A stretch of 64,000 nucleotides of DNA. It comes from Actinomycetota bacterium (GTDB lineage Bacteria > Actinomycetota > Thermoleophilia > BMS3ABIN01). The stretch covers positions 10,788 through 74,787 of the forward strand of contig JAMDDD010000024.1 of NCBI GenBank assembly GCA_023489275.1. Direction: 5' to 3'. The position numbers were made by a program, and so were the translations under genes. The notes under the pieces are model-generated. The model was not told the origin of the DNA, searched no databases, and worked only from the letters and a program-made list of their open reading frames with translations. Of the stretch, positions 1,074-56,212 are shown in pieces (position 1 is the stretch's first letter; the number at the start of each line of letters is the position of its first letter).

Positions 1074-1269
1074 CGCTCCTCCTCAATGGGCCGGATTCGC
1101 ATTTTTCTACTTCTACCTCCGGGCTGATTTTGTAAACCAGGGTTTGCCGGCCGGTATAGAACTAATCCGGCGGGTGATTCGTGGCGAGGCCTGGCGGAAA
1201 AAGCCATCCAGCCGCCTCCCTTGACTTTCCGGCGCGGCGGGAATAACTTAAGCAAAGCATAGCCAATCC

Positions 1270-1490
1270 TCGTTAGGTGAGGCTCCAGCGCAGATACAGG
1301 CCGTTGCCCGGAAAGGTCCAAAGACCCCAACGGGTAGAACAGGCATTACCGGAATAAGGTTCTGCCCGAGACGGCTGAGAGAGATCTCTACGGTGCGCTG
1401 TGCCAAAGCTTTGACGAGCTGGGGAAGGTTATGAGCGGTTTGCTGCCGATATTTTTCCGGCCACAGCCGTTTGCGGTTGTCGGTTGATTT
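1270..1490 (+). promoter_or_regulatory. M-box (ykoK leader) Mg2+-sensing riboswitch with a terminator-like expression platform
   Basis: GTTAGGTGAGGCTCC...GCCCGGAAAGGTCCAAAGACCCCAACGGGTAGAACAGG...ATAAGGT...GGCTGAGAG...GCCAAAGCT matches the conserved M-box core blocks. A hairpin and T-tract at ~1450–1490 precede the operon start at 1563. Confidence 0.7.
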
Positions 1491-17385: not shown

Positions 17386-18765
17386 TCATAAATGAGCCGG
17401 GATGAGCTTTTGCCTCGCTGCTTTTGCCGCTGCCGATGTCTTTTCTTCGTCGACTGTGAGCAGCACCTTTTTGTCATAAATAGTCCGGCCGGCAACCATG
17501 ACAAAAAAAACATCTTCCCGGCTGCCGCCCAAAACCAGCGCCGAATACGGATCTTCAATCGGCATGAAATGATTGTGCTCCATATCAACCGCGATCATGT
17601 CCGCCTGCTTCCCCGGCTCCAGCGAGCCGGTGCGTCCATCCAGGCCCAAAACCCGGGCCCCGCCGAGAGTCGCCATCCTGACGCAGTCAGATGCATCCAG
17701 AGCCTCCGCGTCTCTTCGGACTCCGCGGTGCAGGAAGACAGCGGTTCTCATTTCACTAAACATATCCATCATGTTGCTGCTTGCCGGGCTGTCAGTGCCG
17801 AAGCCAACCCTGATTCCCGCAGCCAGGAAAGAAGGCAGCGGGGCGATGCCGCAGCCCAGCTTGGCGTTGCTCTTCGGGCAATGGGCAATGGCGACGCCGC
17901 TCCCGGCCAGGATCGCCACGTCCTGATCGGTAACGTTCACGCAGTGAACGGCGATGAAGTCAGGACCGTAGACATCCCATTGTTGCAGGTACTTTACCGG
18001 GGTGACTCCAAACGCTTCCCGCGTCATTTTTTCCCAACCAACCTTTTCCCTGAGATCAAGCGCAAGCACGCCGGAGCCGGACCGGATGTATGCCGATTCC
18101 TCACTACTTTCAGCAAGGTGAGTGGCAAATCTTTTCCCTCTTTCCCGTGCCAGCCGTGCGACCGCGCGGTACATGGCGGCGCTGACCGTATATGTCGCAT
18201 GGGGGAAAAGGCCAATCTCGACCAGGTCGTTCTGGCTCTCTTCCAGCTCATCCAGCCGGGCGGAAAGCCCGGCCATCGTGGCGGCGAGTTTGCCGTCATC
18301 GATGCCGAACGCCTCCTGAAAAACAATTGCCCTGAGACCGGCAGCGTTGACCGCGTCCAGGCTGGCGCCCGCGTACATGGAGTCGGCGACGGTCGTAAAC
18401 CCCGACGAGACGCACTCGGCGGCGCCCAGACGGGCGCTGGCCAGATAATCTTCTTGTGACAAAATCGAGCGAATATCAAGAAAATTCAACAGCCAGTCGC
18501 CGAAATTCATATTATCCAGCAGGCCGCGAAAAACTGAATATTCAAGATGGCTGTGGCAATTGACAAAACCAGGCAGAAGAATTGCGTGATGCAGGTTGAC
18601 GACTTTCGATCCGGGATTTGCTTCCATAATCACCGCGGCCGGCCCCACATCAATGATAGACGACCCCTTGACAGCGACAGCGCCTTCGTAAACAGGATCT
18701 GCCGATACGGGCAGAACCCATTTTGCCCGGAATATACTGATCGACTCATCGCTTCTATTTTGCAT
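17386..18765 (-). CDS. Amidohydrolase, MTA/SAH deaminase family (MtaD/TRZ-ATZ-like)
   Basis: Metal-binding motifs HxH (VNCHSHLEYS), HCV and GTDSPASSN are present. Confidence 0.8.
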   Translation of the reverse strand: MQNRSDESISIFRAKWVLPVSADPVYEGAVAVKGSSIIDVGPAAVIMEANPGSKVVNLHHAILLPGFVNCHSHLEYSVFRGLLDNMNFGDWLLNFLDIRSILSQEDYLASARLGAAECVSSGFTTVADSMYAGASLDAVNAAGLRAIVFQEAFGIDDGKLAATMAGLSARLDELEESQNDLVEIGLFPHATYTVSAAMYRAVARLARERGKRFATHLAESSEESAYIRSGSGVLALDLREKVGWEKMTREAFGVTPVKYLQQWDVYGPDFIAVHCVNVTDQDVAILAGSGVAIAHCPKSNAKLGCGIAPLPSFLAAGIRVGFGTDSPASSNMMDMFSEMRTAVFLHRGVRRDAEALDASDCVRMATLGGARVLGLDGRTGSLEPGKQADMIAVDMEHNHFMPIEDPYSALVLGGSREDVFFVMVAGRTIYDKKVLLTVDEEKTSAAAKAARQKLIPAHL

Positions 18766-19057
18766 CAGGCGCGCCTTTTAAAAAGCCAGCTCTCCGATCC
18801 CTGACGGAGACAGCCGGGTGTTGACCTCTGCCCGGCCGGGTAAATATATGTGCCGGCCCCGGCAGTCAGCTTCGCTCTTCGGACAGGAAGGAAAGATTTC
18901 TTGAGCATTATTTCCTCTTTCTATAGGATATGGCGGAAAATATTTCCTTCCCGCATTTCCGGTTTTGGCTTGTGTCCGCGATCGGCCCCGGCCTGCAGAT
19001 TATCTTCCAGTACTGGCAGGACCGGGAACGGCAGAGCTGCCTGTAGAAACCTCTTTA

Positions 19058-20806
19058 ATGAATCGCTTAAGAAAAGAATGGAATAGTCTTAAAGACGCGT
19101 GGGACGCCAGCCGCTGGGCTGGCAATCATGGCAATCCTTCGAGATTCATTATTATCGCCGGCACATTCTGCCTCTTCGCTTACATTTTATTCGCCATCCT
19201 GCCACTTTTCATTCCCGGAGCAGATTTTAGCCATTTCCCTCCCTATCTGGCGCTGCCGGATGGAGGTTTTAACCTGTCAAATTACTATTTTCTATATTTT
19301 CTGATCAGCTTCAACGCGCTCATGCTCTTTGGACTTTATTTTATTTCGCTAAAAAGCATCTCTGGCTACCGGGCGGATCCGGCTGATCTGGCACCGCCGC
19401 GGCGCTTCCGGCCCTGGAGGCGCAACCGGGAAACGAATTATGTTTTCAGCTTTGCCGCCCTGTTTCATTTGGTGATGCTGCTTACGCCATTTCTTCTGTC
19501 TACTGACCTTTTCGACTATATCCGGCATGGCCGCATCTTCGCCATCTACGGCGAGAACCCTCTAGTGGTGCCGGCCACTTATTTCCCTCACGACCCCTTC
19601 TTCAACCTGGGAGGCTGGCTCAGCACGGGCGCTGTTTACGGCCCCCTTCACGTTTACGCGACCGGCCTGCTGGCCTGGCTGGCCGGCAACGGCATCGGCG
19701 CCAACTTTCTGGTCTTCAAGGCTTTTTTCCTTGGCCTTAACTTGTTGAACGTCGTCCTGATTGGCTCCATCACCGCGCGCCTGCATCCTGGCCTCGAGAA
19801 AAAAGCCATGCTTTTCTATGGCTGGAATCCCTTTATCCTGGCGCTGGTGGTGGCCAACGCGCACAACGACATCCTGATGCTGACATTTGTTTTGCTTGGC
19901 ATAGCGTGTTTTTTAAAAAGGCGGTTCGTTGCCGGAGCGCTTCTGATTACTCTCGCCACGCTCGTTAAATTCATGGCGCTCCCGATACTCCTGGTTTACT
20001 TTGCGCTGGCGCTTCGCAAGCTAAAATCCTTTAGAGCCCGGCTGCTTTCCGGGGCCGGCATGCTGGCCGTGTCCGTGGGCGCGGTGGTGATTTCCTACTG
20101 GCGGTTATGGGAAGGCATGGATACCTTTAGATATCTGACCGACGTGGGGCAGAAGACCAATTTCACCATTCCGGGGCTCATGCGGGACATCGCCGCTGGG
20201 CACCTGCAGCTCTCGCTCTCGAATACGGTGGTGCAATTGACGGTGGCCATCCTTTTGCTCGGATACATTTTGTGGCATACTTTCGGCGTCAAGAATACGG
20301 CTTCGTTCCTGTCGGCCGCCGCCGGCATCGCCTTCCTGACGCCGCTCGCCCTTTTCTGGTTCCAGCCGTGGTACTTGACGATGGCAATGGGCCTGATCGC
20401 GCTCAGGCCTTGGCGGCTGATTTACAAAGTGTCGCTGGTTTTCTCATTCACAGTGATGTTTTTCGACAGTTTCTGGTGGCACACTCCCATGTCGATGGAT
20501 GTAGAGAAAAGCCTGCGGGTGCTCGTGGTTTTCGGACCGCCAATCGCTCTGCTTCTCTGGGCGAAAGGCCGGGAAGTTCTGCCGGCGGCCTGGCAGCGGA
20601 TCTGGTCCTGGTCGCTTGAGGGCAGCGCCAGGAGAGACGGGACTCTGGCTGCCACGGACCCCGCTCTGGTGAAAATCGTGGCGCAGGTCGCCGGCCTGTT
20701 TGCCGCCGCGCTGGTGCCGATGGCCTTAATTGTTTCGGTCTCTCCTCATCTCAGAGAGCTGACCAATCTGGTGTTCATGAAGTTTCAACTGCTTACCCAT
20801 CTGTAG
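19058..20806 (+). CDS. Polytopic integral membrane protein, putative GT-C-type glycosyltransferase
   Basis: About 580 aa with more than 12 TM helices. The stop overlaps the start of the next gene, so it heads a three-gene envelope operon. The assignment rests on topology only. Confidence 0.4.
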   Translation: MNRLRKEWNSLKDAWDASRWAGNHGNPSRFIIIAGTFCLFAYILFAILPLFIPGADFSHFPPYLALPDGGFNLSNYYFLYFLISFNALMLFGLYFISLKSISGYRADPADLAPPRRFRPWRRNRETNYVFSFAALFHLVMLLTPFLLSTDLFDYIRHGRIFAIYGENPLVVPATYFPHDPFFNLGGWLSTGAVYGPLHVYATGLLAWLAGNGIGANFLVFKAFFLGLNLLNVVLIGSITARLHPGLEKKAMLFYGWNPFILALVVANAHNDILMLTFVLLGIACFLKRRFVAGALLITLATLVKFMALPILLVYFALALRKLKSFRARLLSGAGMLAVSVGAVVISYWRLWEGMDTFRYLTDVGQKTNFTIPGLMRDIAAGHLQLSLSNTVVQLTVAILLLGYILWHTFGVKNTASFLSAAAGIAFLTPLALFWFQPWYLTMAMGLIALRPWRLIYKVSLVFSFTVMFFDSFWWHTPMSMDVEKSLRVLVVFGPPIALLLWAKGREVLPAAWQRIWSWSLEGSARRDGTLAATDPALVKIVAQVAGLFAAALVPMALIVSVSPHLRELTNLVFMKFQLLTHL

Positions 20807-21697
20807 ATGATCACCTGGCGTTATCACATTTTGACGATCGCCGCAATTTTCCTGGCGCTTTCCCTGGGAGTGCTTATCGGCATTGCCCTCACCGACAGCG
20901 GCAGAGTCAACAGCAGCCAGCAGGATCTAGTGAGCGGCATTCAACAGGATTTAACCAGCCTGCGAGACCAGGTCGATTCACTCGGCCGGGATAATTCGAT
21001 CAACCTCCGATTCCAGCAGGATGCATTTCCCTTTATCGTCGGAGGTCAGCTGCAGGGAAGAAAAATTGCCGTCATTGCGGCTGATGCCGCCGGCAGCGAT
21101 ATCCAGCGCAGGCTCGAATCAGCGATACACGGTGCCGGTGGACAGGTAATTTCCACCACGGTGTTAAATTCGAGATTCGATCAGAAGGCCATGAACGACA
21201 AGGTCAGAAATGATTGGAAAGACGACCCCTCGTATGCGGGGGCCGATGATGGAACCTTGATCAACTTAATCGCCCGCCAGCTCGACCGTGAGATCGTGAA
21301 GGCGGGAGGGGACAGGATGCTTTCAACCCTCCAGGGGACCCTGGTAGATTCGACCAGCGGCCGATACGATATCCCGGCTGACGGGGTCGTCATCATCTCC
21401 CGGTCCGATGACAAACAGACGTCTGCCTATTCCGAGGTGGAAAAACAGATGGCCATCGGACTGAACGAGCTGAGCGTAATTGCCGTCGGCTGCGAGACGA
21501 GCGACGCTCCCAGCTCTGAAATCCCCATTTACCTGAGCGCCGATATTTCTTCGGTGGACAACCTGGACAGCCCCATCGGTCAAGTTTCCGTTGTCTACGC
21601 GCTTGCCGGGGAAAAGGGAAATTATGGAATCAAAACAACGTCAAACATGCTGATTCCGATTCTGAGAAGTCCAAAATCGCAAACGGTCGCGCATTAA
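20807..21697 (+). CDS. MctB-like (DUF3186) envelope protein
   Basis: N-terminus ITWRYHILTIAAIFLALSLGVLIG and the AIHGAGGQVISTTVL block resemble mycobacterial MctB; single N-terminal TM. Confidence 0.55.
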   Translation: MITWRYHILTIAAIFLALSLGVLIGIALTDSGRVNSSQQDLVSGIQQDLTSLRDQVDSLGRDNSINLRFQQDAFPFIVGGQLQGRKIAVIAADAAGSDIQRRLESAIHGAGGQVISTTVLNSRFDQKAMNDKVRNDWKDDPSYAGADDGTLINLIARQLDREIVKAGGDRMLSTLQGTLVDSTSGRYDIPADGVVIISRSDDKQTSAYSEVEKQMAIGLNELSVIAVGCETSDAPSSEIPIYLSADISSVDNLDSPIGQVSVVYALAGEKGNYGIKTTSNMLIPILRSPKSQTVAH

Positions 21698-22600
21698 ATG
21701 AAATGCCGGCGCAATCCTGGGAAAACGGCCGCGGCTGCAATTCTTTTTCTCATGATTTTTTTGGCGGGGCCCGGCTGCTCGGGCAATAATCTCTCCTCAA
21801 CCAGAACGCCGGCCATATTAAAAACACAAACCGGGGCTACCGGCACCGTGATGACCGCGACCACGCCCGCCGGAGCTTTCCGGTTCCAACCGCTGGCGTT
21901 CCCGGCATCTATGCCAAGCCCCGCCCGCATTGTCAAGGTTCCCATCCTCATGTATCATCACATCGGCAGCCTCCCGCCTCGCGCAGACCTGATCCGCCGG
22001 GGACTAACGGTTTCTGCCGCCAACTTTAGCCGGCAGATGAGCTACCTGAAAGAGAGCGGATTTCATCCGGTTTCCCAAGCGGCGTTATTCGAGGCTCTGT
22101 TCGAGAACGAGCCGCTGCCGGACAAGCCTGTGGTGATCTCATTTGATGATGGCTACCGGGACAATTTCACGCAGGCTCTGCCGATCCTGGAAAGCTGCAA
22201 TTTTACGGCAACCTTCAACATCATCACGGCAAAGGTTGGCATCAAAGGTTTTATGAGCTGGAACCAGATTCTGGAGCTGCAATTCACCGGTATGGACATC
22301 GGCTCTCACACGGTTGACCATCAGGATCTGTCCATTCTCAGCGGCCCCGGCGTCAGGCATGAGCTGATTGATTCGGAGCAGACACTTGCATCCCACCTGG
22401 GCCATCCCGTCTACTGGCTTTGTTATCCGTCCGGCGCTTACAATGCCCGGGTTATCGCGGTGGCCCGGGAGGCCGGCTACCTGCTGGCGACAACAACGCA
22501 TCCGGGCGCGTACCAGAGCAGCGCCAAGCCGTTTGAACTAAACCGGCTCCGGGTGCGCAACGACACGACCCTGACGGAATTCGAGCAACTGCTCCGGTAG
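21698..22600 (+). CDS. Polysaccharide deacetylase (NodB homology domain), secreted
   Basis: Signal peptide followed by FDDGYRDNF and HTVDHQDL motifs. Confidence 0.8.
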   Translation: MKCRRNPGKTAAAAILFLMIFLAGPGCSGNNLSSTRTPAILKTQTGATGTVMTATTPAGAFRFQPLAFPASMPSPARIVKVPILMYHHIGSLPPRADLIRRGLTVSAANFSRQMSYLKESGFHPVSQAALFEALFENEPLPDKPVVISFDDGYRDNFTQALPILESCNFTATFNIITAKVGIKGFMSWNQILELQFTGMDIGSHTVDHQDLSILSGPGVRHELIDSEQTLASHLGHPVYWLCYPSGAYNARVIAVAREAGYLLATTTHPGAYQSSAKPFELNRLRVRNDTTLTEFEQLLR

Positions 22601-22616
22601 ACGCAGCCGTTTCATC

Positions 22617-23456
22617 CTAAGCCGTTTCTCCCTTGGCGTTTCCCTCCACAACCTCGGCGTCTGGCTGGCGCTTTTTTTGAACCAGCCGGCTCAAGTGAAT
22701 GCTGATCTCATACAAGAAAATAAACGGAACCGCCATCGCCAGCATCGACACAGCATCTTGCGAGGGCGTTAGGGCGGCGCTGATAACTGCGGCGGCGAGA
22801 ATGGCATAACGCCGGTTTTTCGCCAACTGTTTGGAGTTGACCAATCCGACGCGGGCCAAGGTCAAAAGCAGGGCGGGCAGCTCGAATATAATCCCAAACC
22901 CCAGCAGAAACAGGGTAATAAAAGAAAAATACTTGGACGCCTGCACCTGCGGGTGAAAGTAATCACTCTGGTAATTGAGCAGAAAAGGCAGCGCCCTTGG
23001 CACCACAAACCACCAACAGAAAGCAACGCCCCCGAGGAAAAGCAGTGACGAAAAAAAGGCCGCCATGATCGTCACCCGCTTTTCTTTGGTTTTCAGACCG
23101 GGGGCCACGAACGCCCAGATCTCGTAGATGATGACGGGAGAAGCCAGCAGAAATCCGGCATACAGGGAAACCTTAAAAGCAGTCATGAACGATTCCGTGG
23201 GCGCCAGGGTTATCAGCTGTTTTCCGTGAAGCGGCGCGACGAGGAACTCAAGCAAATACCCCTTGAAAATAAAACAAAGAGTGGCGCTGGCGCCCAGCGC
23301 CACGATCGAAATCACTATTCTTTTGCGGAGTTCCTCCAGATGCTCCACCAGGGGCATCCGAAAGTTGCGATAGTCTGCCAATGCCTGAGCCAGTTGAGTC
23401 GCGGGCGGCGATGATGTTTCCTGTCGCGGCCTGAAATACTTCTGCTTGCCGCTCAT
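22617..23456 (-). CDS. tatC: Twin-arginine translocase subunit TatC
   Basis: MPLVEHLEELRKRI start motif (alternative start at 23357) and six TM helices. Confidence 0.85.
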   Translation of the reverse strand: MSGKQKYFRPRQETSSPPATQLAQALADYRNFRMPLVEHLEELRKRIVISIVALGASATLCFIFKGYLLEFLVAPLHGKQLITLAPTESFMTAFKVSLYAGFLLASPVIIYEIWAFVAPGLKTKEKRVTIMAAFFSSLLFLGGVAFCWWFVVPRALPFLLNYQSDYFHPQVQASKYFSFITLFLLGFGIIFELPALLLTLARVGLVNSKQLAKNRRYAILAAAVISAALTPSQDAVSMLAMAVPFIFLYEISIHLSRLVQKKRQPDAEVVEGNAKGETA

Positions 23457-23560
23457 GAGCCAGCGCTTTATTGTTTCTTCCCAAAACGAAGCGAAAGCGA
23501 ACGCTACCTAAACGATGCGGCCATAAATGATTCTAGGTCAGAAGAAGCAGCCAAGTCAAT

Positions 23561-25012
23561 TTGACCGTTGAACGGGGTAGCGAGCTTTTGCCTGCAAATA
23601 TTGCTAAATTATATTTCATGACAAGACCGGACAGACCCTCGGTAGCGCAGCAAATTGAACTTGAGATAGAAAGCCTCGCTTTCGGCGGCCGGGGCTTAGC
23701 CCGCTTAAACGGATTTGTCATCTTTGTAGAGGGTGCATTACCGGGCGACCGGGTCCTTGCGGAGATCATCAGATCTACGCGTTCGTTTGCTGAGGCCAGA
23801 ACCGTCGCTGTGATCAGCCCTTCACAGGCGCGGATTGAGCCAGAGTGCCGGCATTTTGGCGTTTGCGGCGGGTGCTCCTGGCAAACGCTCGAATATCAGA
23901 CACAGCTAAAGTTCAAGCAGCGGCAGGTTGACGACTGCCTGTCACGCATCGGGGGCGTCGATGAATACGAAATCGACACGCCCTTGGGGGCGAGCCAAAT
24001 CTGGCGTTACCGCAACAAGGTCGAGTATTCTTTCACCGGCGATGAAGGCGGACTAAAACTTGGCTTTCACTTGCCGGGTGACTGGAGGCGGGTGATGGAC
24101 GTCGAAGACTGCCTGCTTCACTCCGAAACGACCAACCGGATGCGCGATTTTATTCGTGAGTTTGCGAGCCAGAGCGGGGCCGGTGCTTACGATCAGCGCT
24201 CGGGCAAGGGCTTCTGGCGCCATCTGGTGCTGCGCGAAGCCTTTCGCACCGGCGAATTCATGGTTAACATCGTGACAGCGCCTGGCGAATTTCCGGCCGC
24301 TCGCCGGTTTGTGAACGAAATTACCTCCACTTTCCCCGGGATCGCATCGCTCCTCTGGAGCGTTAATGGGGGTCGCTCGTCTGTGGCCGCCGGTTTTCCC
24401 TATCACGTTCTCGCCGGCCGTGACCATATTTTCGAAGAGATCGGCGGACTGAAGCTCGAGGTCTCACCCTCATCCTTTATGCAGACAAACACCGGCATGG
24501 CCGAGCGCCTTTACGGGAAGTCGCTTGAATATGGCGCTCCCGGAGCTGGTGATCTCGTCTTCGACCTCTATTCCGGGATCGGATCAATCGCCCTGTCGTT
24601 CGCGCGGCACTGCCGGGAGGTGGTTGGAATCGAGATTGTCGAGGAAGCGGTCCGCGCGGCGGCAGCGAATGCGCGACTAAACAATATTGAAAATGCTTCC
24701 TTCCGGTACGGAAAGGTGAGAAGCGTACTGAAGGAGATTCTTGCGGCAGGACGCGTCAGACAGGAATATGGCAGCGGCCCGGTAGAGCTGGTTATTCTCG
24801 ACCCGCCCCGGGCAGGCGCGAGCAAGAAGGAGATTCAGCGGATCCTGGAGCTCGATCCGGACCGGATTGTTTATGTTTCCTGCAATGCCGCGACGATGGC
24901 GGCTAATGCCTCCCGGTTGAAGGAAGGTGGGTACCGGCTGGTCAAGGCGGGCTCAGTTGACATGTTTCCCCACACTCCCCACATTGAAGTCGTCGCCAGT
25001 TTTAAAAAATGA
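23561..25012 (+). CDS. rlmD: 23S rRNA (uracil-5-)-methyltransferase RlmD/RumA family (TRAM plus SAM methyltransferase)
   Basis: TRAM domain, a four-Cys cluster (C..CGGC) and a C-terminal methyltransferase fold. The track start is TTG at 23561; an alternative ATG start is at 23618. Confidence 0.85.
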   Translation: MTVERGSELLPANIAKLYFMTRPDRPSVAQQIELEIESLAFGGRGLARLNGFVIFVEGALPGDRVLAEIIRSTRSFAEARTVAVISPSQARIEPECRHFGVCGGCSWQTLEYQTQLKFKQRQVDDCLSRIGGVDEYEIDTPLGASQIWRYRNKVEYSFTGDEGGLKLGFHLPGDWRRVMDVEDCLLHSETTNRMRDFIREFASQSGAGAYDQRSGKGFWRHLVLREAFRTGEFMVNIVTAPGEFPAARRFVNEITSTFPGIASLLWSVNGGRSSVAAGFPYHVLAGRDHIFEEIGGLKLEVSPSSFMQTNTGMAERLYGKSLEYGAPGAGDLVFDLYSGIGSIALSFARHCREVVGIEIVEEAVRAAAANARLNNIENASFRYGKVRSVLKEILAAGRVRQEYGSGPVELVILDPPRAGASKKEIQRILELDPDRIVYVSCNAATMAANASRLKEGGYRLVKAGSVDMFPHTPHIEVVASFKK

Positions 25013-25200
25013 CAGACGCGCCGGACCGCCCCGGTCTTAAAGGAATCAATGCGGAAATGACAAATAACTAAGGGCCGCTTGAGGCACCCTCTCACTGTTC
25101 AGCTTCAGCCTGTCATTTACTGAAAACGTCTCAGGCGCCGCTGGCGGCGAAGGCTGCCTGGTTTACGATTAATCGGGTGATTGTGATTTACGAGGTTTAA

Positions 25201-25806
25201 ATGTCCGGCCCCGAAGAAAATCTATATGACAAATATCTGACCCGGGCAATTTCTGAGATCAATGAGTTATGCCGGGAGCTAACCCATTGTGAAAAGTGCG
25301 CCCACGGTCCCGCGGTCCCGGTGATTGGATCAGGACACCCGCTGGCGGACATTTTCCTGGTCAAATACAGAACGCTTCCCAGCGAATCTTCCGAAGGGGT
25401 GGCGTTTTACGGCCCTTCTGGCGAAGCAGTGATGAAGAGTTGCCAGAAATTGGGGATCGACTCCCTTATACTTTACGGCACTGATATCATTAAGTGTGCC
25501 AACGTTTCCGAGGAAGAGGCTTTGGAGCACTGTTCGGCATTCCTCACCCGGGAGCTGATGATCGTACAGCCGAAACTTCTGGTTATCATGGGGGAGAAGG
25601 CCCTCGAGGCCGTTAACAGGCTGGAGTTCCCGCTTTCCCGGCGGCTGGAGTTCAAAGCAGGTGAAATCCAGCAATTTACTCCCACGGCGGAAGCGCTTGT
25701 GACTCCGGAAATCGACACCTCTCTAAATGACCAAAAAAGAAAAACAAGCTTCTGGAAATCATTCAGAATCCTTGGCGAATGGTACGAATCGCTTCCGCCC
25801 TACTAA
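25201..25806 (+). CDS. Uracil-DNA glycosylase, family 4
   Basis: CEKCAHGPAVPVIGSGHPLADIFLV...GPSG and HPS-like motifs are present. Confidence 0.8.
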   Translation: MSGPEENLYDKYLTRAISEINELCRELTHCEKCAHGPAVPVIGSGHPLADIFLVKYRTLPSESSEGVAFYGPSGEAVMKSCQKLGIDSLILYGTDIIKCANVSEEEALEHCSAFLTRELMIVQPKLLVIMGEKALEAVNRLEFPLSRRLEFKAGEIQQFTPTAEALVTPEIDTSLNDQKRKTSFWKSFRILGEWYESLPPY

Positions 25807-26632
25807 GCCGGAAGAAAGGCGTGTAGCACGCCTACAACGTAATGCCAACCAGAATGGAAGCTTCATCCGGAAGCCATTTCTCGCTTTCAAGCGGGAAATT
25901 TATTCGTTGCTCGTCTTTACCGGCATTTTCGGGTGCGCGGCGCTGCTTTTTTTCATGCTGACCCGGTCAGGTTTGGTTTCCCGCAACTCCGATTCAGGGT
26001 TGATGTTGGCGTTCATGCTTGGTCTCATCCTGGCCGGGGGGATTTCCTCCACGCTGGCTTTTCTATCCCGCCTTGGCCACCGGCTGCTCCTGGTTGCTCT
26101 CGGCTCCGCACTTGCCGCAGCGGCCGGAATCGCCACCGGCCTGGCGCCGCTGGAGCTTGCCGCAAAACTCTTGTTTGCCACCAGCGCCGGGCTCTGGGTC
26201 GGCATGATGCTTACATCTATCGGCCAGATCATTATCATCAGTGGCCTAATCATCCTGGTCGATTTTTACAGTGTCTTTCTTGGACCGACAAAAAAACTGC
26301 TTGAAAGCGGAGGCAAGGCGATCGATTACTTTACGATCAACCTGCCCGTCTTCGGCGCTCCAGCGGTTTCGAAAATTGGCGTCAGCGATCTGCTTTTCTA
26401 TGCGGTATTTCTCGGTTGCACACTTACATACAGGCTGAGGCGAATTACAACCGCCGTGGCAATGACGGCCTCGTTTGTCGGCACGATGATTATCGGCCTG
26501 ACGCTTAAAAGGGGCGTCCCCGCGCTGCCGCTGCTTTCCGTTTCTTTTCTGCTTTCCAACGCCGATCTGCTTTACCGGCGGTTTCTGGAAGAGCCTGATG
26601 AACAAAGAAAAAGGGGGGAAGAAAGGAATTAG
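25727..26632 (+). CDS. Presenilin/SPP-like (A22 family) intramembrane aspartyl-protease homolog; start uncertain
   Basis: Polytopic protein with LVDFYSVF (YD-like), KIGVSDLLFYAVFLG (GxGD-like) and GVPALPLL (PAL) motifs in the presenilin order. Its last 344 bp fall inside the tandem-duplication unit. Confidence 0.45.
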   Translation: MTKKEKQASGNHSESLANGTNRFRPTKPEERRVARLQRNANQNGSFIRKPFLAFKREIYSLLVFTGIFGCAALLFFMLTRSGLVSRNSDSGLMLAFMLGLILAGGISSTLAFLSRLGHRLLLVALGSALAAAAGIATGLAPLELAAKLLFATSAGLWVGMMLTSIGQIIIISGLIILVDFYSVFLGPTKKLLESGGKAIDYFTINLPVFGAPAVSKIGVSDLLFYAVFLGCTLTYRLRRITTAVAMTASFVGTMIIGLTLKRGVPALPLLSVSFLLSNADLLYRRFLEEPDEQRKRGEERN

Positions 26633-26659
26633 GGCCGGCCGCGCCAGGCCCAGTCAGCA

Positions 26660-27094
26660 ATGCGAATTTTTTTGTTGATTTATACGCTGTTCATGGTCGC
26701 CGGCAGCTTGTTTATGCTGGGCTTGGTGCCGCGTGCGCTTAAAGACCTGGGCCAGGAGCGCCAGCGCCTAAAACAGCAGGCCCCTCAGGCCGATTTCCAA
26801 TCAATGGTTGAAGCCGGCTACCGCGTCAACGTGACGCTGCTTTTGATCGAGATTCTTTATTATTATCTATTGCTTGGCTTCGGCGGTCCGGGATGGCAGT
26901 TTTTTTATGGCGGGTTTTCCTTCGGCTTGCTCCATATCGGCTATCTGATCACCGGCCGTCTGGAAAAACGAAGGCTGTCGCGGGGGTCAGCCAGGACGGC
27001 GTGGCCGCGTTTCTTGCTTTGGTTGACAGCAATTTTGACAGGTGTTGAAATAGTTTTTCTGGTGTATATCGCCTATCTCTTGCTGCAATCATAA
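26660..27094 (+). CDS. Small membrane protein with four predicted TM helices, hypothetical (copy 1)
   Basis: 144-aa ORF with hydrophobic segments; its own upstream spacer is duplicated with it. Confidence 0.5.
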   Translation: MRIFLLIYTLFMVAGSLFMLGLVPRALKDLGQERQRLKQQAPQADFQSMVEAGYRVNVTLLLIEILYYYLLLGFGGPGWQFFYGGFSFGLLHIGYLITGRLEKRRLSRGSARTAWPRFLLWLTAILTGVEIVFLVYIAYLLLQS

Positions 27095-27470
27095 GCGGAC
27101 AACAGACTCTGGGTGCTGGACTTTGAGTTACCCGGTTCTTGCTTTTCTCCAAAATCTGGTATTCAAAACTGAAAAAATGGACCGCCCTCACTACGATGGC
27201 ATCTATGTGCCAAAGTGGTAAATTCTTACCACTTAATCACGAAGAGAAAAGAGTCCGGGCGCAGATTACAACAGCAGCCCTTGACTTGGCAAAGAACGTT
27301 TTTCACTTTCACGCTGTTAATGGGAAAGGAAGAACCGTCTTAAAGAAACAGCTGGCCAGGAAGGCGTCCTACCGTTCTTTGCCAATCAAGCGCCCCGCCT
27401 GATTGGATTAGAAGCGCAAGGTGCAAGCACCTACCGGGCCAGAGAGCTGGGAAAGCTCGGTCACGAGGTG
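27095..27470 (+). mobile_element. IS110-family element remnant, copy 1: low-GC non-coding left end plus the transposase N-terminal fragment, cut by the duplication junction
   Basis: GC drops to ~45%. A perfect hairpin AAGTGGTAA-ATTC-TTACCACTT lies at 27214–27235. The translation LDLAKNVFHFHAVNGKGRTVLKKQLARK matches the IS110 transposase N-terminus. Confidence 0.6.
27250..27470 (+). pseudogene. IS110-family (DEDD) transposase N-terminal fragment, frameshifted and lacking a start codon (copy 1)
   Basis: AQITTAALDLAKNVFHFHAVNGKGRTVLKKQLARK is followed, in the +1 frame, by FFANQAPRLIGLEAQGASTYRARELGKLGHEV. Confidence 0.6.
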
Positions 27471-27841
27471 CAAAAAAACTGCTTGAAAGCGGAGGCAAGG
27501 CGATCGATTACTTTACGATCAACCTGCCCGTCTTCGGCGCTCCAGCGGTTTCGAAAATTGGCGTCAGCGATCTGCTTTTCTATGCGGTATTTCTCGGTTG
27601 CACACTTACATACAGGCTGAGGCGAATTACAACCGCCGTGGCAATGACGGCCTCGTTTGTCGGCACGATGATTATCGGCCTGACGCTTAAAAGGGGCGTC
27701 CCCGCGCTGCCGCTGCTTTCCGTTTCTTTTCTGCTTTCCAACGCCGATCTGCTTTACCGGCGGTTTCTGGAAGAGCCTGATGAACAAAGAAAAAGGGGGG
27801 AAGAAAGGAATTAGGGCCGGCCGCGCCAGGCCCAGTCAGCA

Positions 27842-28276
27842 ATGCGAATTTTTTTGTTGATTTATACGCTGTTCATGGTCGCCGGCAGCTTGTTTATGCT
27901 GGGCTTGGTGCCGCGTGCGCTTAAAGACCTGGGCCAGGAGCGCCAGCGCCTAAAACAGCAGGCCCCTCAGGCCGATTTCCAATCAATGGTTGAAGCCGGC
28001 TACCGCGTCAACGTGACGCTGCTTTTGATCGAGATTCTTTATTATTATCTATTGCTTGGCTTCGGCGGTCCGGGATGGCAGTTTTTTTATGGCGGGTTTT
28101 CCTTCGGCTTGCTCCATATCGGCTATCTGATCACCGGCCGTCTGGAAAAACGAAGGCTGTCGCGGGGGTCAGCCAGGACGGCGTGGCCGCGTTTCTTGCT
28201 TTGGTTGACAGCAATTTTGACAGGTGTTGAAATAGTTTTTCTGGTGTATATCGCCTATCTCTTGCTGCAATCATAA
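27842..28276 (+). CDS. Small membrane protein with four predicted TM helices, hypothetical (copy 2, identical)
   Basis: 100% identical duplicate of 26660–27094. Confidence 0.5.
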   Translation: MRIFLLIYTLFMVAGSLFMLGLVPRALKDLGQERQRLKQQAPQADFQSMVEAGYRVNVTLLLIEILYYYLLLGFGGPGWQFFYGGFSFGLLHIGYLITGRLEKRRLSRGSARTAWPRFLLWLTAILTGVEIVFLVYIAYLLLQS

Positions 28277-28764
28277 GCGGACAACAGACTCTGGGTGCTG
28301 GACTTTGAGTTACCCGGTTCTTGCTTTTCTCCAAAATCTGGTATTCAAAACTGAAAAAATGGACCGCCCTCACTACGATGGCATCTATGTGCCAAAGTGG
28401 TAAATTCTTACCACTTAATCACGAAGAGAAAAGAGTCCGGGCGCAGATTACAACAGCAGCCCTTGACTTGGCAAAGAACGTTTTTCACTTTCACGCTGTT
28501 AATGGGAAAGGAAGAACCGTCTTAAAGAAACAGCTGGCCAGGAAGGCGTCCTACCGTTCTTTGCCAATCAAGCGCCCCGCCTGATTGGATTAGAAGCGCA
28601 AGGTGCAAGCACCTACCGGGCCAGAGAGCTGGGAAAGCTCGGTCACGAGGTGCGGCTCATGAGCCCACAGTTTGTAAAACCGTTCATAAAGAGTTCGAAA
28701 AACAACCAAAACGACGCCGAGGCGATAGGAATCAAATTGGCAGGCAGGGAGAAGACCTGGTTCG
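28277..28764 (+). mobile_element. IS110-family element remnant, copy 2 (left end plus ~110 codons of transposase, 3' truncated against the GGDEF gene)
   Basis: Same as copy 1, then continues ...GHEVRLMSPQFVKPFIKSSKNNQNDAEAI, which matches IS110 transposases. The catalytic DEDD core and C-terminal domain are absent. Confidence 0.6.
28432..28764 (+). pseudogene. IS110-family transposase N-terminal fragment (copy 2), frameshifted and truncated
   Basis: Translated homology as above; no start codon; one frameshift near 28540. Confidence 0.6.
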
Positions 28765-29856
28765 TCAGGAGACAGCCAGCCGCTGTTTCCGGTGGGCCAC
28801 GCTGACACGGTTGCGGCCGCTTTTTTTAGCAACATATAGCAGCTGGTCAACCTTATCCAATAGTTCTTCACGAGACGAAGCCCCCAAGGGATAGCTGGCG
28901 ACGCCGGCGCTAACAGTGATGGCTGTGCTGGCGCCACCCACCGGCACCCGGGCCTGGGAGATAGCCCGCCTCAAACGGCCGGCCGTTTCGATGCCGGCTG
29001 ATTCGTCCCCAGGAATCAGGAGCACGAACTCCTCGCCACCAAAACGGGCGGCAATATCGGATTCGCGCTTTTCCCGCCTCAATGTAACCGCGACGGTTTT
29101 AAGCGCCTCGTTCCCCGCCCGGTGTCCAAACCGGTCGTTAAATTGCTTGAAATGATCGACATCGAACATAACCAGCGTGACTGAGCCGCCGTAGCGCTCT
29201 GCCCGGTGCATTTCGCGATCGAGGCAATCCATGAAAAAACCGTAATTGTAGAGGCCGGTAAGTGAATCGGTGATGGAGGACCGGAGCGTGTGCCGGTGCG
29301 CCAGTTTCTGCCGGCGTTGACCCCAGCCGAGCCCCAGGGCAATGGATGCAAACGTGACCAGGGCAATTATTATCGCCGGGCTCTTTTCGAAAGGAGTCTG
29401 AACCAGAAGCAAGCCGGTAAGCAGCAACGACAGCAGCGCGCCAGCCTCATAAAAATACCATGCCGAGAGGAGAATCGGCGCCGCCAGCAGCGGCCAGAAA
29501 TTATCTTGCCCCATAGCTTTAAGCGCCACCCACAGGAAAAAGAAGGCGCCACCGATAACGAGAACAATTTTCAGCCTGCGGTTTACCGCATCACTGCCGT
29601 GAAGAAAAGGAACTTTTACCGAAGGTTTTGGGGACTCCCGCCTGGGCCGGGCGGTGGCGGCCGGCCGGGCGCGTCTGCCAGACTGGCGGTGGCGACGCTG
29701 CCCGCGCCCTGCGCTCGCGGCTCTTTGTTGGGAAACTGAACCGACCCGGCTTCCCCCAAAAGCGCCAGCTTCGAAGAGTTCCTTATGGTCTGCTGCCGAA
29801 TGCCCGGGTTGACTGCCTTTCGAGCCGCCCGAGCCTGACATTCGCTCAATTTTCAT
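28765..29856 (-). CDS. Membrane-anchored GGDEF-domain diguanylate cyclase
   Basis: RFGGEEFVLL active-site motif. N-terminal TM helices are preceded by an Arg-rich low-complexity segment. Confidence 0.85.
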   Translation of the reverse strand: MKIERMSGSGGSKGSQPGHSAADHKELFEAGAFGGSRVGSVSQQRAASAGRGQRRHRQSGRRARPAATARPRRESPKPSVKVPFLHGSDAVNRRLKIVLVIGGAFFFLWVALKAMGQDNFWPLLAAPILLSAWYFYEAGALLSLLLTGLLLVQTPFEKSPAIIIALVTFASIALGLGWGQRRQKLAHRHTLRSSITDSLTGLYNYGFFMDCLDREMHRAERYGGSVTLVMFDVDHFKQFNDRFGHRAGNEALKTVAVTLRREKRESDIAARFGGEEFVLLIPGDESAGIETAGRLRRAISQARVPVGGASTAITVSAGVASYPLGASSREELLDKVDQLLYVAKKSGRNRVSVAHRKQRLAVS

Positions 29857-30079
29857 GCCTTGCCCCAGGTTTTGGCAAACAATTAATCCTTAATAAATAC
29901 ATTTACTCGCTGCTTGCCCTTCTTCCTTCGATGGGCGCTGCCGCCGGCTACAGAGATCGCGGGCGGCGCCCCCGGGAACAAAAAGTGCTTGACCTGCCTG
30001 CGCTAAGGACTTGCCCCTGCGTCCTTGACCATGGTTTTTTTGCTCAGCCTCGCATACGTATGCCATTTGAGACAGGTTC

Positions 30080-32392
30080 TCAACCACACCGTGAGAAGCC
30101 GCATGACCGGCAGAAGACGCATCCCTCACCAAATTCCAGGCTGGTGCTGCCACATTCGGGGCATTCAGGGCAATGAGCCAGCTCCGCCGACGGCCGCAGT
30201 TCCATCGATTCAATATTTCCGGCCAGTTTTGGCATTTTTTCCAGATGAACCAGTAGCGCCTGGGCGATCGCATCCGGACAGGAATTTACCTTAACACCGT
30301 CCGAGTAGCCCGGCGTGGGGCAACGGATGCCCTTCACTGACTTTACGACGGCATCTACCGCCACTCCGGATCTCAGCGCCAGCGAGATTAACCGCGCAAT
30401 GGCTTCAGATTGGGCGCCCTTGCAACCTCCCGCAAGTCCCATCGATGAGAAAACCTCGAAAAGTCCATGTTCGTCCTGGTTGATTGTGACGTAAATGTTG
30501 CCGCAGCCAGACGTCAGCTTGTGCGTCCCTCCTGTAATAAAACCTGGCCTCGGCCGCGGCTTGACCTGACCGGGAATAAATCCGTTTTTCGCCTGCTTGT
30601 TTCCGGCAATATTTAATACCTGGATCTCACGACTGCCGTCCCGGTAGATTGTGACGCCCTTGCACCCGGTGCGGTAAGCGAGCATGTAAGCCCGCTTTAC
30701 GTCGTCCGTCAAGGCGTCATGGGGAAAGTTGACGGTCTTGGAGACAGCGTTATCAGTAAACTTCTGAAAAGCAGCCTGCATGCGGATATGCCATTCGGGG
30801 CTGACATCGTGCGCGGTAACGAACAGGGATTTCATTTCATCCGGGATCTCCGGCAGATCCTTGAGGCTTCCCTTCTTGGCGATCTCTTTCATCAGCTCCT
30901 CACTGTAGTATCCGCCATCCCTGGCCATTCTCTCGAAGGAGCGATGAACTTCAACCATTTCCGTGTTATCAAGCACGTTCCTGACGTAAGAAACTGCGAA
31001 CAGGGGCTCGATACCGCTGGAACACCCGGCAATTATGCTCAGGGTGCCGGTGGGAGCAATTGTGGTGGTGGTGGCGTTGCGAACCTTCAACCCTGGCGCA
31101 GTATCATAAATGCTGCCCTCAAAATTTGGAAACGCACCCCGTTCCTCCGCCAGCTGTGCGGACTTTTTCCCGGCTCGGTCCCGGATAAACTCCATGATTT
31201 CCGCGGCGACGGTTACTGCTTCCTCCGAATTGTACGGGATACCCAGTTCTATGAGGAGGTCAGCGAATCCCATCACTCCCAGGCCAATCTTGCGATTGGC
31301 CTTGGTCTTCTGTTCAATCTCCGGCAGCGGGTAATTGTTAACATCGATGACATTGTCAAGAAAATGAACCGCTCCGTCGACGACATGGCCCAGATGCTCA
31401 TAATCGAGCTCGCCGGCAGATCCGATCATTCGGGATAGATTGATCGAGCCGAGATTACAGGATTCGAAAGGAAGGAGGGGCTGCTCGCCGCAGGGGTTGG
31501 TGCTCTCGATCTCACCAATATGAGGCGTCGGATTATCACGGTTAATCCGGTCGATGAAAATGATCCCCGGGTCTCCGTTCTTCCACGCGAGATTGACAAT
31601 CATCTCAAACACCCGCCTCGCTTCCAGGCTTTTTGATACCTTGCCCGTGCGGGGATTAACCAGATCATATTCTTCATCCCGGTCAACAGCTTCCATGAAC
31701 TCTTCCGTCAAGGCAACGGAGATGTTGAAGTTATTCAGCCTGTCGTTGCTTTGCTTGGCGGTAATAAAATCAAGGATATCGGGGTGGTCCACGCGCAGAA
31801 TCCCCATGTTGGCGCCCCGCCGCGTCCCGCCCTGTTTAATCGTTTCGGTAGCCGCATCAAACACGGTCATGAACGAGATGGGTCCGCTGGAGACTCCCTT
31901 GGTTGACAGCACCACATCATTGCTGGGGCGGATGCGGGAAAAAGAGAAACCGGTTCCCCCACCGCTCTTGTGGATCAGGGCGGTGTTCTTGATAGCGTCA
32001 AAAATACTCTCCATTGAATCGCCAATCGGGAGCACGAAACAGGCCGACAGCTGCCCCAGTTCTCTGCCGGCGTTCATCAACGTAGGCGAGTTCGGTAAAA
32101 ACTCAAGCCTGGCCATCATCCGGTAGAATTCTTCTTCCACAGCCTCAATATCAGCCTCGCGGTCATGGATCAGATCAGCCTGAGCAATGGTTGACGCCAC
32201 CCGCCGGAACATCTCGGCCGGCGTCTCGACTGGATTCCCATCTTCATCTTTTTTAAGATACCTCTTCTCCAGCACTTTCATCGCATTGGGCGATAGCTGC
32301 GGCTTTAACGGCAAAGACGATATCCGGGAGCCTTTACTGGAAGCCTGCTGGTGTTGATTGACTAACATGGAGTGTTTCCCCTTTCCAGGCAA
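30080..32392 (-). CDS. nrdJ: Adenosylcobalamin-dependent ribonucleotide reductase (class II, NrdJ) with C-terminal zinc ribbon
   Basis: 770-aa protein with the class II RNR N-terminus ([30 protein letters not shown]) and a C-terminal CPECPECG...CVFCRSCG module. Confidence 0.9.
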
Positions 32393-56149: not shown

Positions 56150-56212
56150 CAAAATCATGGTGATGAAGCTCACCATTAACCGCGCCGCGGCGCTAATGGC
56201 TTCTGCAGAAAT
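56150..56212 (+). promoter_or_regulatory. Fluoride riboswitch (crcB motif)
   Basis: GGUGAUGAAGCUCACC...AACCGCGCC...GGCGCUAAUGGCUUCUGC matches the conserved crcB-motif blocks (GAUG, AAC[CU]GCC, CUxAUGGCxUCU). It lies ~60 nt upstream of crcB. Confidence 0.7.

Follow-up and report, generated by a model that had tools for sequence, protein, structure and literature searches.

A decayed left-end stump of a probable IS1111-type insertion sequence whose 9-bp hairpin matches a conserved transposase mRNA leader

The closest described systems are insertion sequences (ISs) of the IS1111 family, including ISEc11, IS4321/IS5075, ISPa11, and ISKpn4 (Partridge & Hall 2003; Siddiquee et al. 2024, PMC11187229). 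A circular intermediate carrying a junction promoter is common to IS1111-type and IS110-type elements, and both choose their targets by RNA guidance. In IS110-type elements the guide is encoded upstream of tnp, the gene for the transposase (PMC11187229); IS621 and ISEc21 carry it in a 5' non-coding region (NCR) of about 150–250 nt without subterminal repeats, of which ISEc21 needs about 150–180 nt. The published position of the IS1111 guide RNA and of the long non-coding region is downstream of tnp (PMC11187229; PMC12288879), as placed by RNA-seq of ribonucleoproteins for ISEc11, ISPa11, and ISKpn4 (PMC11187229), and an ISEc11 mini-IS moves with Tnp and an 82-nt 3'-derived seekRNA given in trans. 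Rare IS1111 members such as ISMtsp17 have an upstream NCR (Siddiquee et al. 2024, PMC11187229), and therefore IS1111 membership alone is no absolute proof of guide position. Since the two types carry their guide RNA at opposite ends, truncated IS110-superfamily elements need to be typed as IS110 or IS1111 before any of them is called a bridge RNA relic. Another kind of RNA structure at IS ends is known from IS10 and IS50, in which fold-back inhibits transposase translation. For ISPpu9, a structured 5'-UTR is described by Gomez-Garcia 2021, according to the secondary account in PMC12288879.

We analysed a remnant in a 64-kb stretch of DNA (the window) from an uncultured actinobacterial MAG, a host that sets it apart from the named IS1111 members. 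Sister MAGs of this host are GCA_021789835.1 and GCA_021790075.1. The first-pass annotation had called it a decayed IS110-family element, which is right at the superfamily level. Specifically, the stitched translation matches the NCBIfam profile NF033542 (transpos_IS110) at E=1.1e-19 over profile positions 2–101 of 343, that is, in the N-terminal DEDD/RuvC-like domain, placing the remnant in the same recombinase superfamily as IS621 and ISEc21; Pfam PF01548 is not significant on the remnant alone (E=0.033), so that the NCBIfam profile is required. The remnant has 430 homologues at E<=1e-3, nearly all with PF01548. Because the best 120 homologous proteins listed are all short (<200 aa), the intact elements used below were taken from genome and metagenome scans, and not from the protein homologues. 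The window's own genome was not among the matches of the genome scan. By tblastn, the transposase is nearest to named IS1111 members, with 48% identity to ISEc11 (3e-20), 45% to IS4321/IS5075 (4e-20), and 50% to ISPko7. The best named matches ISEc11, IS4321, and IS5075, together with a left repeat behind a 7-nt extension and an 89-nt 5' NCR, identify the remnant on sequence grounds as a member of the IS110 superfamily that is of IS1111 type rather than IS110 type. The closest relatives (P0001–P0005 and L092, 65–88% identity) are every one truncated or frameshifted, and searches of the 64-kb window, by tblastn with the remnant and by blastn with the non-coding stretch, detected no further copy.

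The IS remnant is 375 bp long and consists of an 89-nt left end and 96 codons of tnp (Table 1), in place of the ~110 codons estimated in the annotation, whose two quoted peptide stretches are indeed found in frames 1 and 3 of 28441–28810. Alignment with relatives bears out the proposal that the region upstream of the reading frame is the left end of the element. In same-clade IS remnants at unrelated loci (L001 and L003), similarity to the window ends upstream of the TGA at 28352. The ~140-nt non-coding segment described earlier is low in GC as stated (44.5% vs 56.3% for the window), but only 89 nt of it come from the IS and the remainder is host intergenic DNA. Similarly, the truncation assigned to the stop of the convergent GGDEF gene is confirmed at 28726, but it falls 38 nt short of that stop codon (28765–28767). 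The intervening spacer is common to the orthologous MAG L087, and at the same position in L004 the IS reading frame goes on (AEAIC-stop-AVTRPHMLFVPLETGEQQD).

Table 1 Features of the remnant and its surroundings in window coordinates; slashes in sequences mark the duplication junction.
Feature	Position	Strand	Remarks
Perfect 1,182-bp tandem duplication	26289-27471 and 27471-28653		head-to-tail; 1,183-nt identity run at offset 1,182
Duplication junction	27471/27472		...GGTCACGAGGTGC/AAAAAAACTGC...; 1 nt microhomology; in other extents GAGGTGC/AAAAAAACTG and ...GGTCACGAGGTGC/AAAAAAACTGCTTG...
Host intergenic DNA, not IS	28277-28351 (copy 1: 27095-27169)	+	3' of 144-aa ORF
IS left end / tnp mRNA leader	28352-28440 (copy 1: 27170-27258)	+	aligned with left ends of relatives
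Terminal extension TGAAAAA, 7 nt	28352-28358	+	
Left subterminal inverted repeat ATGGACCGCCC	28359-28369	+	aligns with left repeats of relatives
Hairpin 1 GGCATCTATGTGCC	28380-28393	+	
Hairpin 2 AAGTGGTAA-ATTC-TTACCACTT	28395-28416 (copy 1: 27213-27234)	+	perfect 9-bp stem
Purine-rich ribosome-binding / anti-repeat tract GAAGAGAAAAGAGTCC	from about 28422	+	
Transposase pseudogene, codons 1-96 of about 345	28441-28726	+	cut after ...AEAI
Pseudogene copy 1	27259-27471	+	cut after codon ~71 at the duplication junction
Spacer, 38 nt	28727-28764		between deletion endpoint and GGDEF stop codon; common to L087
Convergent GGDEF diguanylate cyclase gene	28765-29856	-	Pfam PF00990, E=5e-40; context only

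The architecture of the complete element was derived from about 65 distinct full-length relatives, mostly proteobacterial and 51–62% identical over the N-terminal 96 residues. Intact copies in cultivable hosts include one in Pseudomonas sp. MPB23 (L034) and plasmid copies in Aeromonas salmonicida. Multiple copies within genomes delimit elements of ~1.4 kb with 12–15-bp subterminal repeats, which are set in from the left end by 7 nt and from the right end by 3 nt. The 5' NCR is typically 86–94 nt (range 64–112), the 3' NCR measures 256–399 nt, and the circular form carries a junction promoter (TTGGCA-17 nt-TA/TAAT). These relatives thus display the complete IS1111 feature of 11–13-bp repeats with terminal extensions of 7 nt (left) and 3 nt (right), along with the long, target-matching 3' NCR of the family. 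The window retains the left repeat behind its 7-nt extension and the short 5' NCR but has lost the right end. The relatives accordingly supplied what is said here of both repeats as a pair, of the 3-nt extension on the right, and of the 3' NCR. Unlike an intact IS1111 element, the remnant retains only the first 375 bp, without the right end, the 3' NCR with its seekRNA, and the C-terminal domain. An intact copy of the clade would be expected to carry a 3' NCR of ~270–350 nt and the right repeat GGGCGGTCCAT.

The perfect 9-bp hairpin reported in the annotation is present in both copies, in a window that holds 18 perfect hairpins of at least 9 bp against about 1.7 expected. A covariance model of the leader, built from intact proteobacterial relatives only, matches 28357–28433 and 27175–27251 (33.8 bits, E about 5e-7) and has no other match in the window. 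The window leader folds with a z-score of -3.8; for L006 and L001 the values are -4.4 and -4.1, and their minimum-free-energy folds have the three parts. In intact relatives, the modelled closing stem pairs the left subterminal repeat with the Shine-Dalgarno/AUG region and encloses two hairpins. RNAalifold on a plain MAFFT alignment recovered hairpin 1 alone, with the arms of hairpin 2 misaligned, and support for the leader was instead drawn from per-sequence folds, partner-swap controls, and a hand-specified structure. For the closing stem, the duplex energy is -18.5 kcal/mol with the own partner and -11.2 with a mismatched one (38/38); hairpin 2 gives -6.6 and -3.7 (36/38). In addition, 89% of the alignment cells are paired, vs at most 45% with partners slid, a value reached by none of 500 shuffles, and nine pairs are changed on both sides. 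Hairpin 2 covaries, while hairpin 1 is invariant in sequence within the subfamily (GGCAU...GUGCC) with a universally kept U.G pair. Comparing how often the closing stem shows G.U and how often A.C mismatches, as a measure of RNA- vs DNA-level constraint, is confounded by the purine-rich Shine-Dalgarno tract. The covariance model is weak on ISEc11 and IS4321 (E=0.36 and 0.07), so the full three-part leader is subfamily-specific; hairpin 1 also occurs in the ISEc11 left end (GGCATCATAGTGCC). These comparisons identify the 9-bp hairpin as hairpin 2 of a conserved, covarying tnp mRNA leader, which persists in the window only as a relic, since its closing stem and start codon are degraded. The predicted, covariation-supported pairing of an end-proximal repeat with the ribosome-binding and start region of tnp resembles IS10/IS50 and ISPpu9, and differs from them in the two extra hairpins, one of which is invariant both in sequence and in its U.G pair, and in the decay of the closing stem in the window. 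As a by-product, one IS1111 subfamily is documented to have a covarying leader structure, a candidate for translational control.

The left end had been proposed to hold a relic bridge-RNA-like ncRNA. Indeed, the stump contains a true left end that is structured and conserved, and guides of IS110-type elements are encoded at this side of tnp. The element, however, bears IS1111 hallmarks, and its 5' NCR of 89 nt with a subterminal repeat (64–112 nt in relatives) falls short of the about 150 nt or more of a guide-bearing 5' region and of the length needed in ISEc21. Searched against PDB sequences, the remnant matched nothing at all, IS621 included, and an intact relative matches IS621 and ISCro4 in the C-terminal part only (E=1e-8 to 5e-10). 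Target complementarity was assessed on 53 relatives, the window's own target having been lost with the right flank. The 3' NCR matches its own target on both strands in 52 of them (14.9 vs 11.4 nt, p=2.5e-10), in top-then-bottom order and with the matching segments about 105–185 nt into the 3' NCR, whereas the 5' NCRs, in which a bridge RNA would have loops complementary to target (and donor) DNA, match their own target no better than unrelated ones (9.47 vs 9.41 nt, p=0.70). This comparison also offers a simple sequence-only way to find the target-matching segments of seekRNAs. Rfam 15 yielded no relevant match on the window (E<=10), nor on 12 intact relatives (gathering threshold), and cannot decide the question because the intact relatives gave no match either. 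With the mobility of the ISEc11 mini-IS added, a surviving bridge-RNA or seekRNA gene at the left end, as in IS621 or ISEc21, appears highly improbable; the complementarity data confirm for this subfamily the published position of the guide RNA 3' of tnp, in the part deleted from the window. A hairpin encoded by the host and unconnected with the IS, for example an intrinsic terminator, would suit its intergenic position, 119 nt past the stop codon of the 144-aa ORF. No T-tract follows the stem, though, no terminator is called there, and the same hairpin position with covarying stems recurs in IS copies from unrelated loci and other phyla, which makes this explanation extremely remote.

Selection on the stump itself would offer another account, in which the left end and N-terminal fragment have been domesticated as a small protein or a regulatory RNA. 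MAGs of about 97% ANI keep the stump at the same locus, left-end plus N-terminal stumps occur at several loci (L001, L003, L004), and 118–137-aa ORFs are called in L004. Against this, the pN/pS of the remnant relative to the orthologue L087 is 0.99, compared with 0.04–0.26 in neighbouring genes; the leader of L087 folds no better than shuffled sequence (z=-0.04); and the seeming enrichment of N-terminal stumps is an effect of the N-terminal query. The window strain is moreover frameshifted by 1 nt between frames 1 and 3 (CC at 28550–28551, CCC in the orthologues L087 and L004), and the ancestral start codon is gone, with GCG where relatives show ATG. The third acidic DEDD position is N (KNNQNDAEAI, vs KNDQNDAEAI in L087 and L004); the first D survives in LDLAK and the E in LEAQG, and the C-terminal domain is absent. 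Domestication is therefore very unlikely, and the stump is, as far as its substitution pattern can tell, a neutrally drifting pseudogene. The annotation was thus correct in describing an element without a start codon, frameshifted, and dead, while the C-to-Q change that it had counted as decay is common to the nearest relatives (LEAQG, MKAQG, MEATG in P0002–P0004) and is a clade trait.

Overall, the locus is very probably the decayed left stump of an IS1111-type element whose 3' guide-RNA part has been deleted and whose hairpin belongs to the tnp mRNA leader. In an ancestor of the uncultured actinobacterial lineage represented here, an IS1111-type IS (DEDD transposase, about 1.4 kb when intact) would have inserted 3' of the 144-aa ORF. 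A later deletion would have taken everything beyond codon 96, namely the remaining tnp, the right end, and the 3' NCR with the seekRNA/bridge RNA. The stump that remained probably then lost its start codon, and this strain would have gained the frameshift and the Asp-to-Asn change at the catalytic position, leaving a presumably neutral stump unable to move or to make a guide RNA. In the intact element, tnp would be transcribed from the promoter formed at the joined ends of the circular intermediate, and the leader fold may limit tnp translation, by analogy with IS10/IS50 and ISPpu9. The junction-promoter transcript would still carry most of the left repeat, and fold-back inhibition of read-through transcripts only may thus be an incomplete account. 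A rather speculative idea, which we consider unlikely, is that the transposase recognises the leader as a second RNA module alongside the 3' seekRNA, with the window preserving its fossil; the module could serve, for instance, in autoregulation, in cis-preferential loading, or to sense the ends of the element. A split bridge with the leader as one half is rejected, as the ISEc11 mini-IS moves with Tnp and the 82-nt 3' seekRNA alone. The finding is an ordinary one, and the locus itself carries little weight as a neutral fossil of a past insertion and deletion beside a GGDEF gene.

The remnant appears twice because the assembly carries a perfect tandem duplication, and the span 27095–28764, earlier treated as one element, crosses the duplication junction and also holds duplicated host genes. 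The duplication is either polymorphic or an assembly artefact, as judged from sequence comparison. A genuine, very recent duplication in the organism would agree with the two identical ORF copies of the deposited MAG (MCL6106614.1 and MCL6106616.1) and with the habit of short-read assemblers to collapse repeats rather than create them; the deposited record, however, is probably the window itself and hence no independent evidence. An independent Logan contig (L085, SRR10244963), 100% identical over 12.8 kb (window 18660–31508), passes both breakpoints with a single copy, and related MAGs, including L087, have one copy. Zero divergence between the copies and 1 nt of microhomology are, in turn, the product expected from end-to-end joining of overlapping contigs. 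A genuine duplication is therefore a serious but somewhat less favoured possibility, and this perfect 1.18-kb repeat calls for caution. At its junction, pseudogene copy 1 runs out of frame into the 3' portion of a 301-aa membrane-protein gene.

What remains at the locus is the dead stump of an insertion sequence (IS) of the IS1111 type, and an ordinary one. Both peptide stretches quoted in the first-pass annotation, which had proposed a decayed IS110-family element, were found in the window, and the stitched 96-residue translation covers positions 2–101 of 343 of the NCBIfam profile transpos_IS110 (E=1.1e-19), confirming the superfamily; hundreds of its homologues bear PF01548. The remnant has GCG where relatives have the ATG start codon, is one C short relative to its orthologues in L087 (a MAG contig of ~97% identity) and L004 (a 1.3-kb metagenome contig), and carries KNNQNDAEAI in place of the motif KNDQNDAEAI. 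Homology to every relative ends at 28726, after ...AEAI; a further 38 nt separate this point from the convergent GGDEF gene's stop codon. Against the L087 stump, 13 non-synonymous and 4 synonymous differences give a pN/pS of 0.99, compared with 0.04–0.26 for neighbouring genes (n=5). These are signs of decay: the remnant is a pseudogene, drifting neutrally, and the first-pass observation is largely correct.

The best named match of the remnant is ISEc11 (48% identity, 3e-20), with IS4321/IS5075 (45% identity, 4e-20) and ISPko7 also among the best; IS621 in the PDB gave no detectable match. ISEc11, IS4321 and IS5075 are textbook members of the IS1111 family (PMC11187229). Full-length relatives, drawn from genomes and metagenomes, encode transposases of 340–350 aa, and multiple copies within their genomes delimit elements of ~1.4 kb. 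Their 12–15-bp subterminal inverted repeats lie 7 nt inside the left end and 3 nt inside the right end, in exact agreement with the 7-nt/3-nt offset that Siddiquee et al. give as the IS1111 signature (PMC11187229). About 65 distinct relatives of full length typically have a 5′ non-coding region (NCR) of 86–94 nt (range 64–112); their 3′ NCR measures 256–399 nt. The window keeps this layout, starting at 28352 with the 7-nt extension TGAAAAA followed by the left repeat, ATGGACCGCCC. L001 and L003, which are same-clade remnants from loci unrelated to this one, lose similarity to the window directly upstream of 28352; the 75 nt before the element therefore belong to the host, and the left end of the IS measures just 89 nt. 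Directly downstream of one intact IS1111-type relative, L013, lies a group II intron domain.

Coordinates of the remnant, its surroundings and related features
Feature	Sequence	Position (strand)	Remark
M-box (magnesium) riboswitch	window	1262–1430 (+)	Rfam RF00380, 144.5 bits
301-aa predicted membrane protein	window	25727–26632	pN/pS 0.10 vs L087, purifying selection; no Pfam or NCBIfam family
144-aa predicted membrane protein	window	26660–27094	pN/pS 0.26 vs L087, purifying selection; no Pfam or NCBIfam family
Duplication unit, copies 1 and 2	window	26289–27471, 27471–28653	1,182 bp, every base identical
Host DNA, copies 1 and 2	window	27095–27169, 28277–28351	
Leader model matches	window	27175–27251, 28357–28433	33.8 bits, E about 5e-7
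Transposase remnant, copy 1	window	27259–27471	cut by duplication junction
Transposase remnant, copy 2	window	28441–28726	whole surviving fragment
Missing C	window	28550–28551	
Left-end patch	window; L087	28352–28420; 5510–5580	~65 nt, roughly 30% diverged
Fluoride riboswitch	window	56150–56212 (+)	Rfam RF01734, 47.3 bits
Alternative locus arrangement, or chimera	L004	715–1341	
Hairpin 1	L090 (ISEc11)	1432–1445	shared with the subfamily
Group II intron domain	L013	5493–5664 (−)	RF02001

The first-pass annotation had further suggested that a bridge-RNA-like relic may survive at the left end. In IS110-type elements, the NCR and its seekRNA (bridge RNA) lie upstream of the transposase gene, whereas in IS1111-type elements they lie downstream (PMC11187229; PMC12288879), and the RNAs bound in ribonucleoproteins of ISEc11, ISPa11 and ISKpn4 map to the 3′ region (PMC11187229). 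In a set of 53 relatives whose ends are defined, we reconstructed the target from both flanks and compared the longest NCR matches to each target strand between own and unrelated targets. The 3′ NCR fits its own target better in 52 of the 53 (summed match 14.9 versus 11.4 nt, p=2.5e-10), while the 5′ NCR of the same relatives carries no own-target signal (9.47 versus 9.41 nt, p=0.70). Specifically, a typical 3′ NCR contains an 8–10-nt complement of the right flank ~105–135 nt after the stop codon and, ~25 nt beyond it, a 7–8-nt segment spanning the insertion point. The suggested relic is thus unsupported, because in this element type the guide is encoded at the opposite end; the guide-RNA gene belonged to the part deleted from the window. 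An Rfam scan, which gave no match even on intact relatives, carries no weight for or against such an RNA. Additionally, putative target-matching segments of the seekRNA can be read from the 3′ NCR sequence alone in the intact relatives (L005–L171).

The left ends of the subfamily share a three-part fold, a modest by-product of the analysis worth a note. Both copies contain the perfect 9-bp hairpin reported earlier, a kind of hairpin that is well in excess of chance expectation. A closing stem pairs the left subterminal repeat with the purine-rich ribosome-binding and start-codon region ~75 nt downstream, and encloses two hairpins. Hairpin 1 (GGCAUC...GUGCC) is nearly invariant in sequence, and all sequences examined have its U.G pair; the hairpin also occurs in ISEc11. 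Hairpin 2, to which the 9-bp hairpin of the window corresponds, differs in stem sequence between elements but keeps its pairing (AGUGG/CCACU, UAGGAU/AUCCUA, AGUUAA/UUAACU, GGGUUGC/GCAAACC). The minimum-free-energy folds of L006 (intact) and L001 adopt exactly this arrangement, with z-scores of −4.4 and −4.1. Within an element, the repeat and the ribosome-binding region form a more stable duplex than when the repeat is combined with the ribosome-binding region of an element that has a different repeat (−18.5 versus −11.2 kcal/mol; own better in 38/38), and hairpin 2 arms prefer their own partners in 36/38. In a 26-sequence alignment, 89% of cells are paired, against at most 45% with partners slid, and nine pairs are altered on both sides; none of 500 shuffles attains the observed values. 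A covariance model built from intact proteobacterial elements only matches both window leaders and nothing further within the 64 kb; L001, L003 and L092, which are better-preserved remnants, score 55–57 bits. Hairpins 1 and 2 are retained in the window, while the closing stem has decayed (−9.1 kcal/mol, where intact elements reach −15 to −29) and there is no longer a start codon.

In intact elements, the joined ends are predicted to give a near-consensus promoter, TTGGCA-17 nt-TATAAT, spanning the junction between TA and TAAT; such promoters are known for ISEc11 and other family members (PMC12288879; PMC11187229). End joining in the circular intermediate would create this promoter, its transcript would carry the leader, transposase gene and 3′ guide, and the left repeat, by pairing with the ribosome-binding site, would keep transposase translation low. 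In IS10 and IS50, pairing between repeat and ribosome-binding site likewise limits transposase translation. The subfamily leader may be analogous to these elements and to the 5′-UTR of ISPpu9 in this pairing. The same strategy is reported for the structured ISPpu9 5′-UTR (PMC12288879). A caveat to the fold-back model concerns the left repeat, most of which would still lie inside the junction-promoter transcript. Since its sequence, and not structure alone, is conserved, hairpin 1 may serve as a site of binding or processing. A mini-IS of ISEc11 whose left end is only 50 bp long moves when supplied with transposase and an 82-nt 3′ seekRNA (PMC11187229), which argues that the leader is regulatory and not part of the recombination machinery.

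The remnant occurs twice because the window contains a head-to-tail duplication, with the junction ...GAGGTGC followed by AAAAAAACTGC... and 1 nt of microhomology. Each unit contains the 3′ part of the 301-aa membrane-protein gene, the 144-aa ORF, an intergenic stretch of 75 nt, the IS left end and transposase codons 1 to ~71. The span first annotated (27095–28764) crosses the junction, since the copies meet at 27471. L085, a Logan contig (SRR10244963) identical (100%) to window 18660–31508, has a single unit and is continuous across both breakpoints; the related MAG contigs L087 and L088 (~97% identity) are also single-copy. The sole two-copy record is an NCBI 'Actinobacteria bacterium' MAG (MCL6106614.1 = MCL6106616.1, matching the window ORF from residue 5 on), which is most probably the MAG that the window itself comes from. 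A polymorphism and an end-to-end join of overlapping contigs are therefore about equally likely explanations of the duplication; 26289–28653 may thus contain an assembly artefact.

L087 has the stump too, truncated at the identical point but without the frameshift. Its left-end patch diverges from the window and is similar to the L001 and L003 left ends, which suggests, from sequence comparison, recombination or gene conversion with another IS copy. L004 has the left flank and left end of the window type, an IS frame ~20 codons longer, and an IS30-like fragment (minus strand) plus the uvrB 3′ end in place of the GGDEF gene; it represents an alternative locus arrangement or a chimeric contig. 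Its longer frame and different downstream genes suggest that the deletion at 28726 is not universal in the population.
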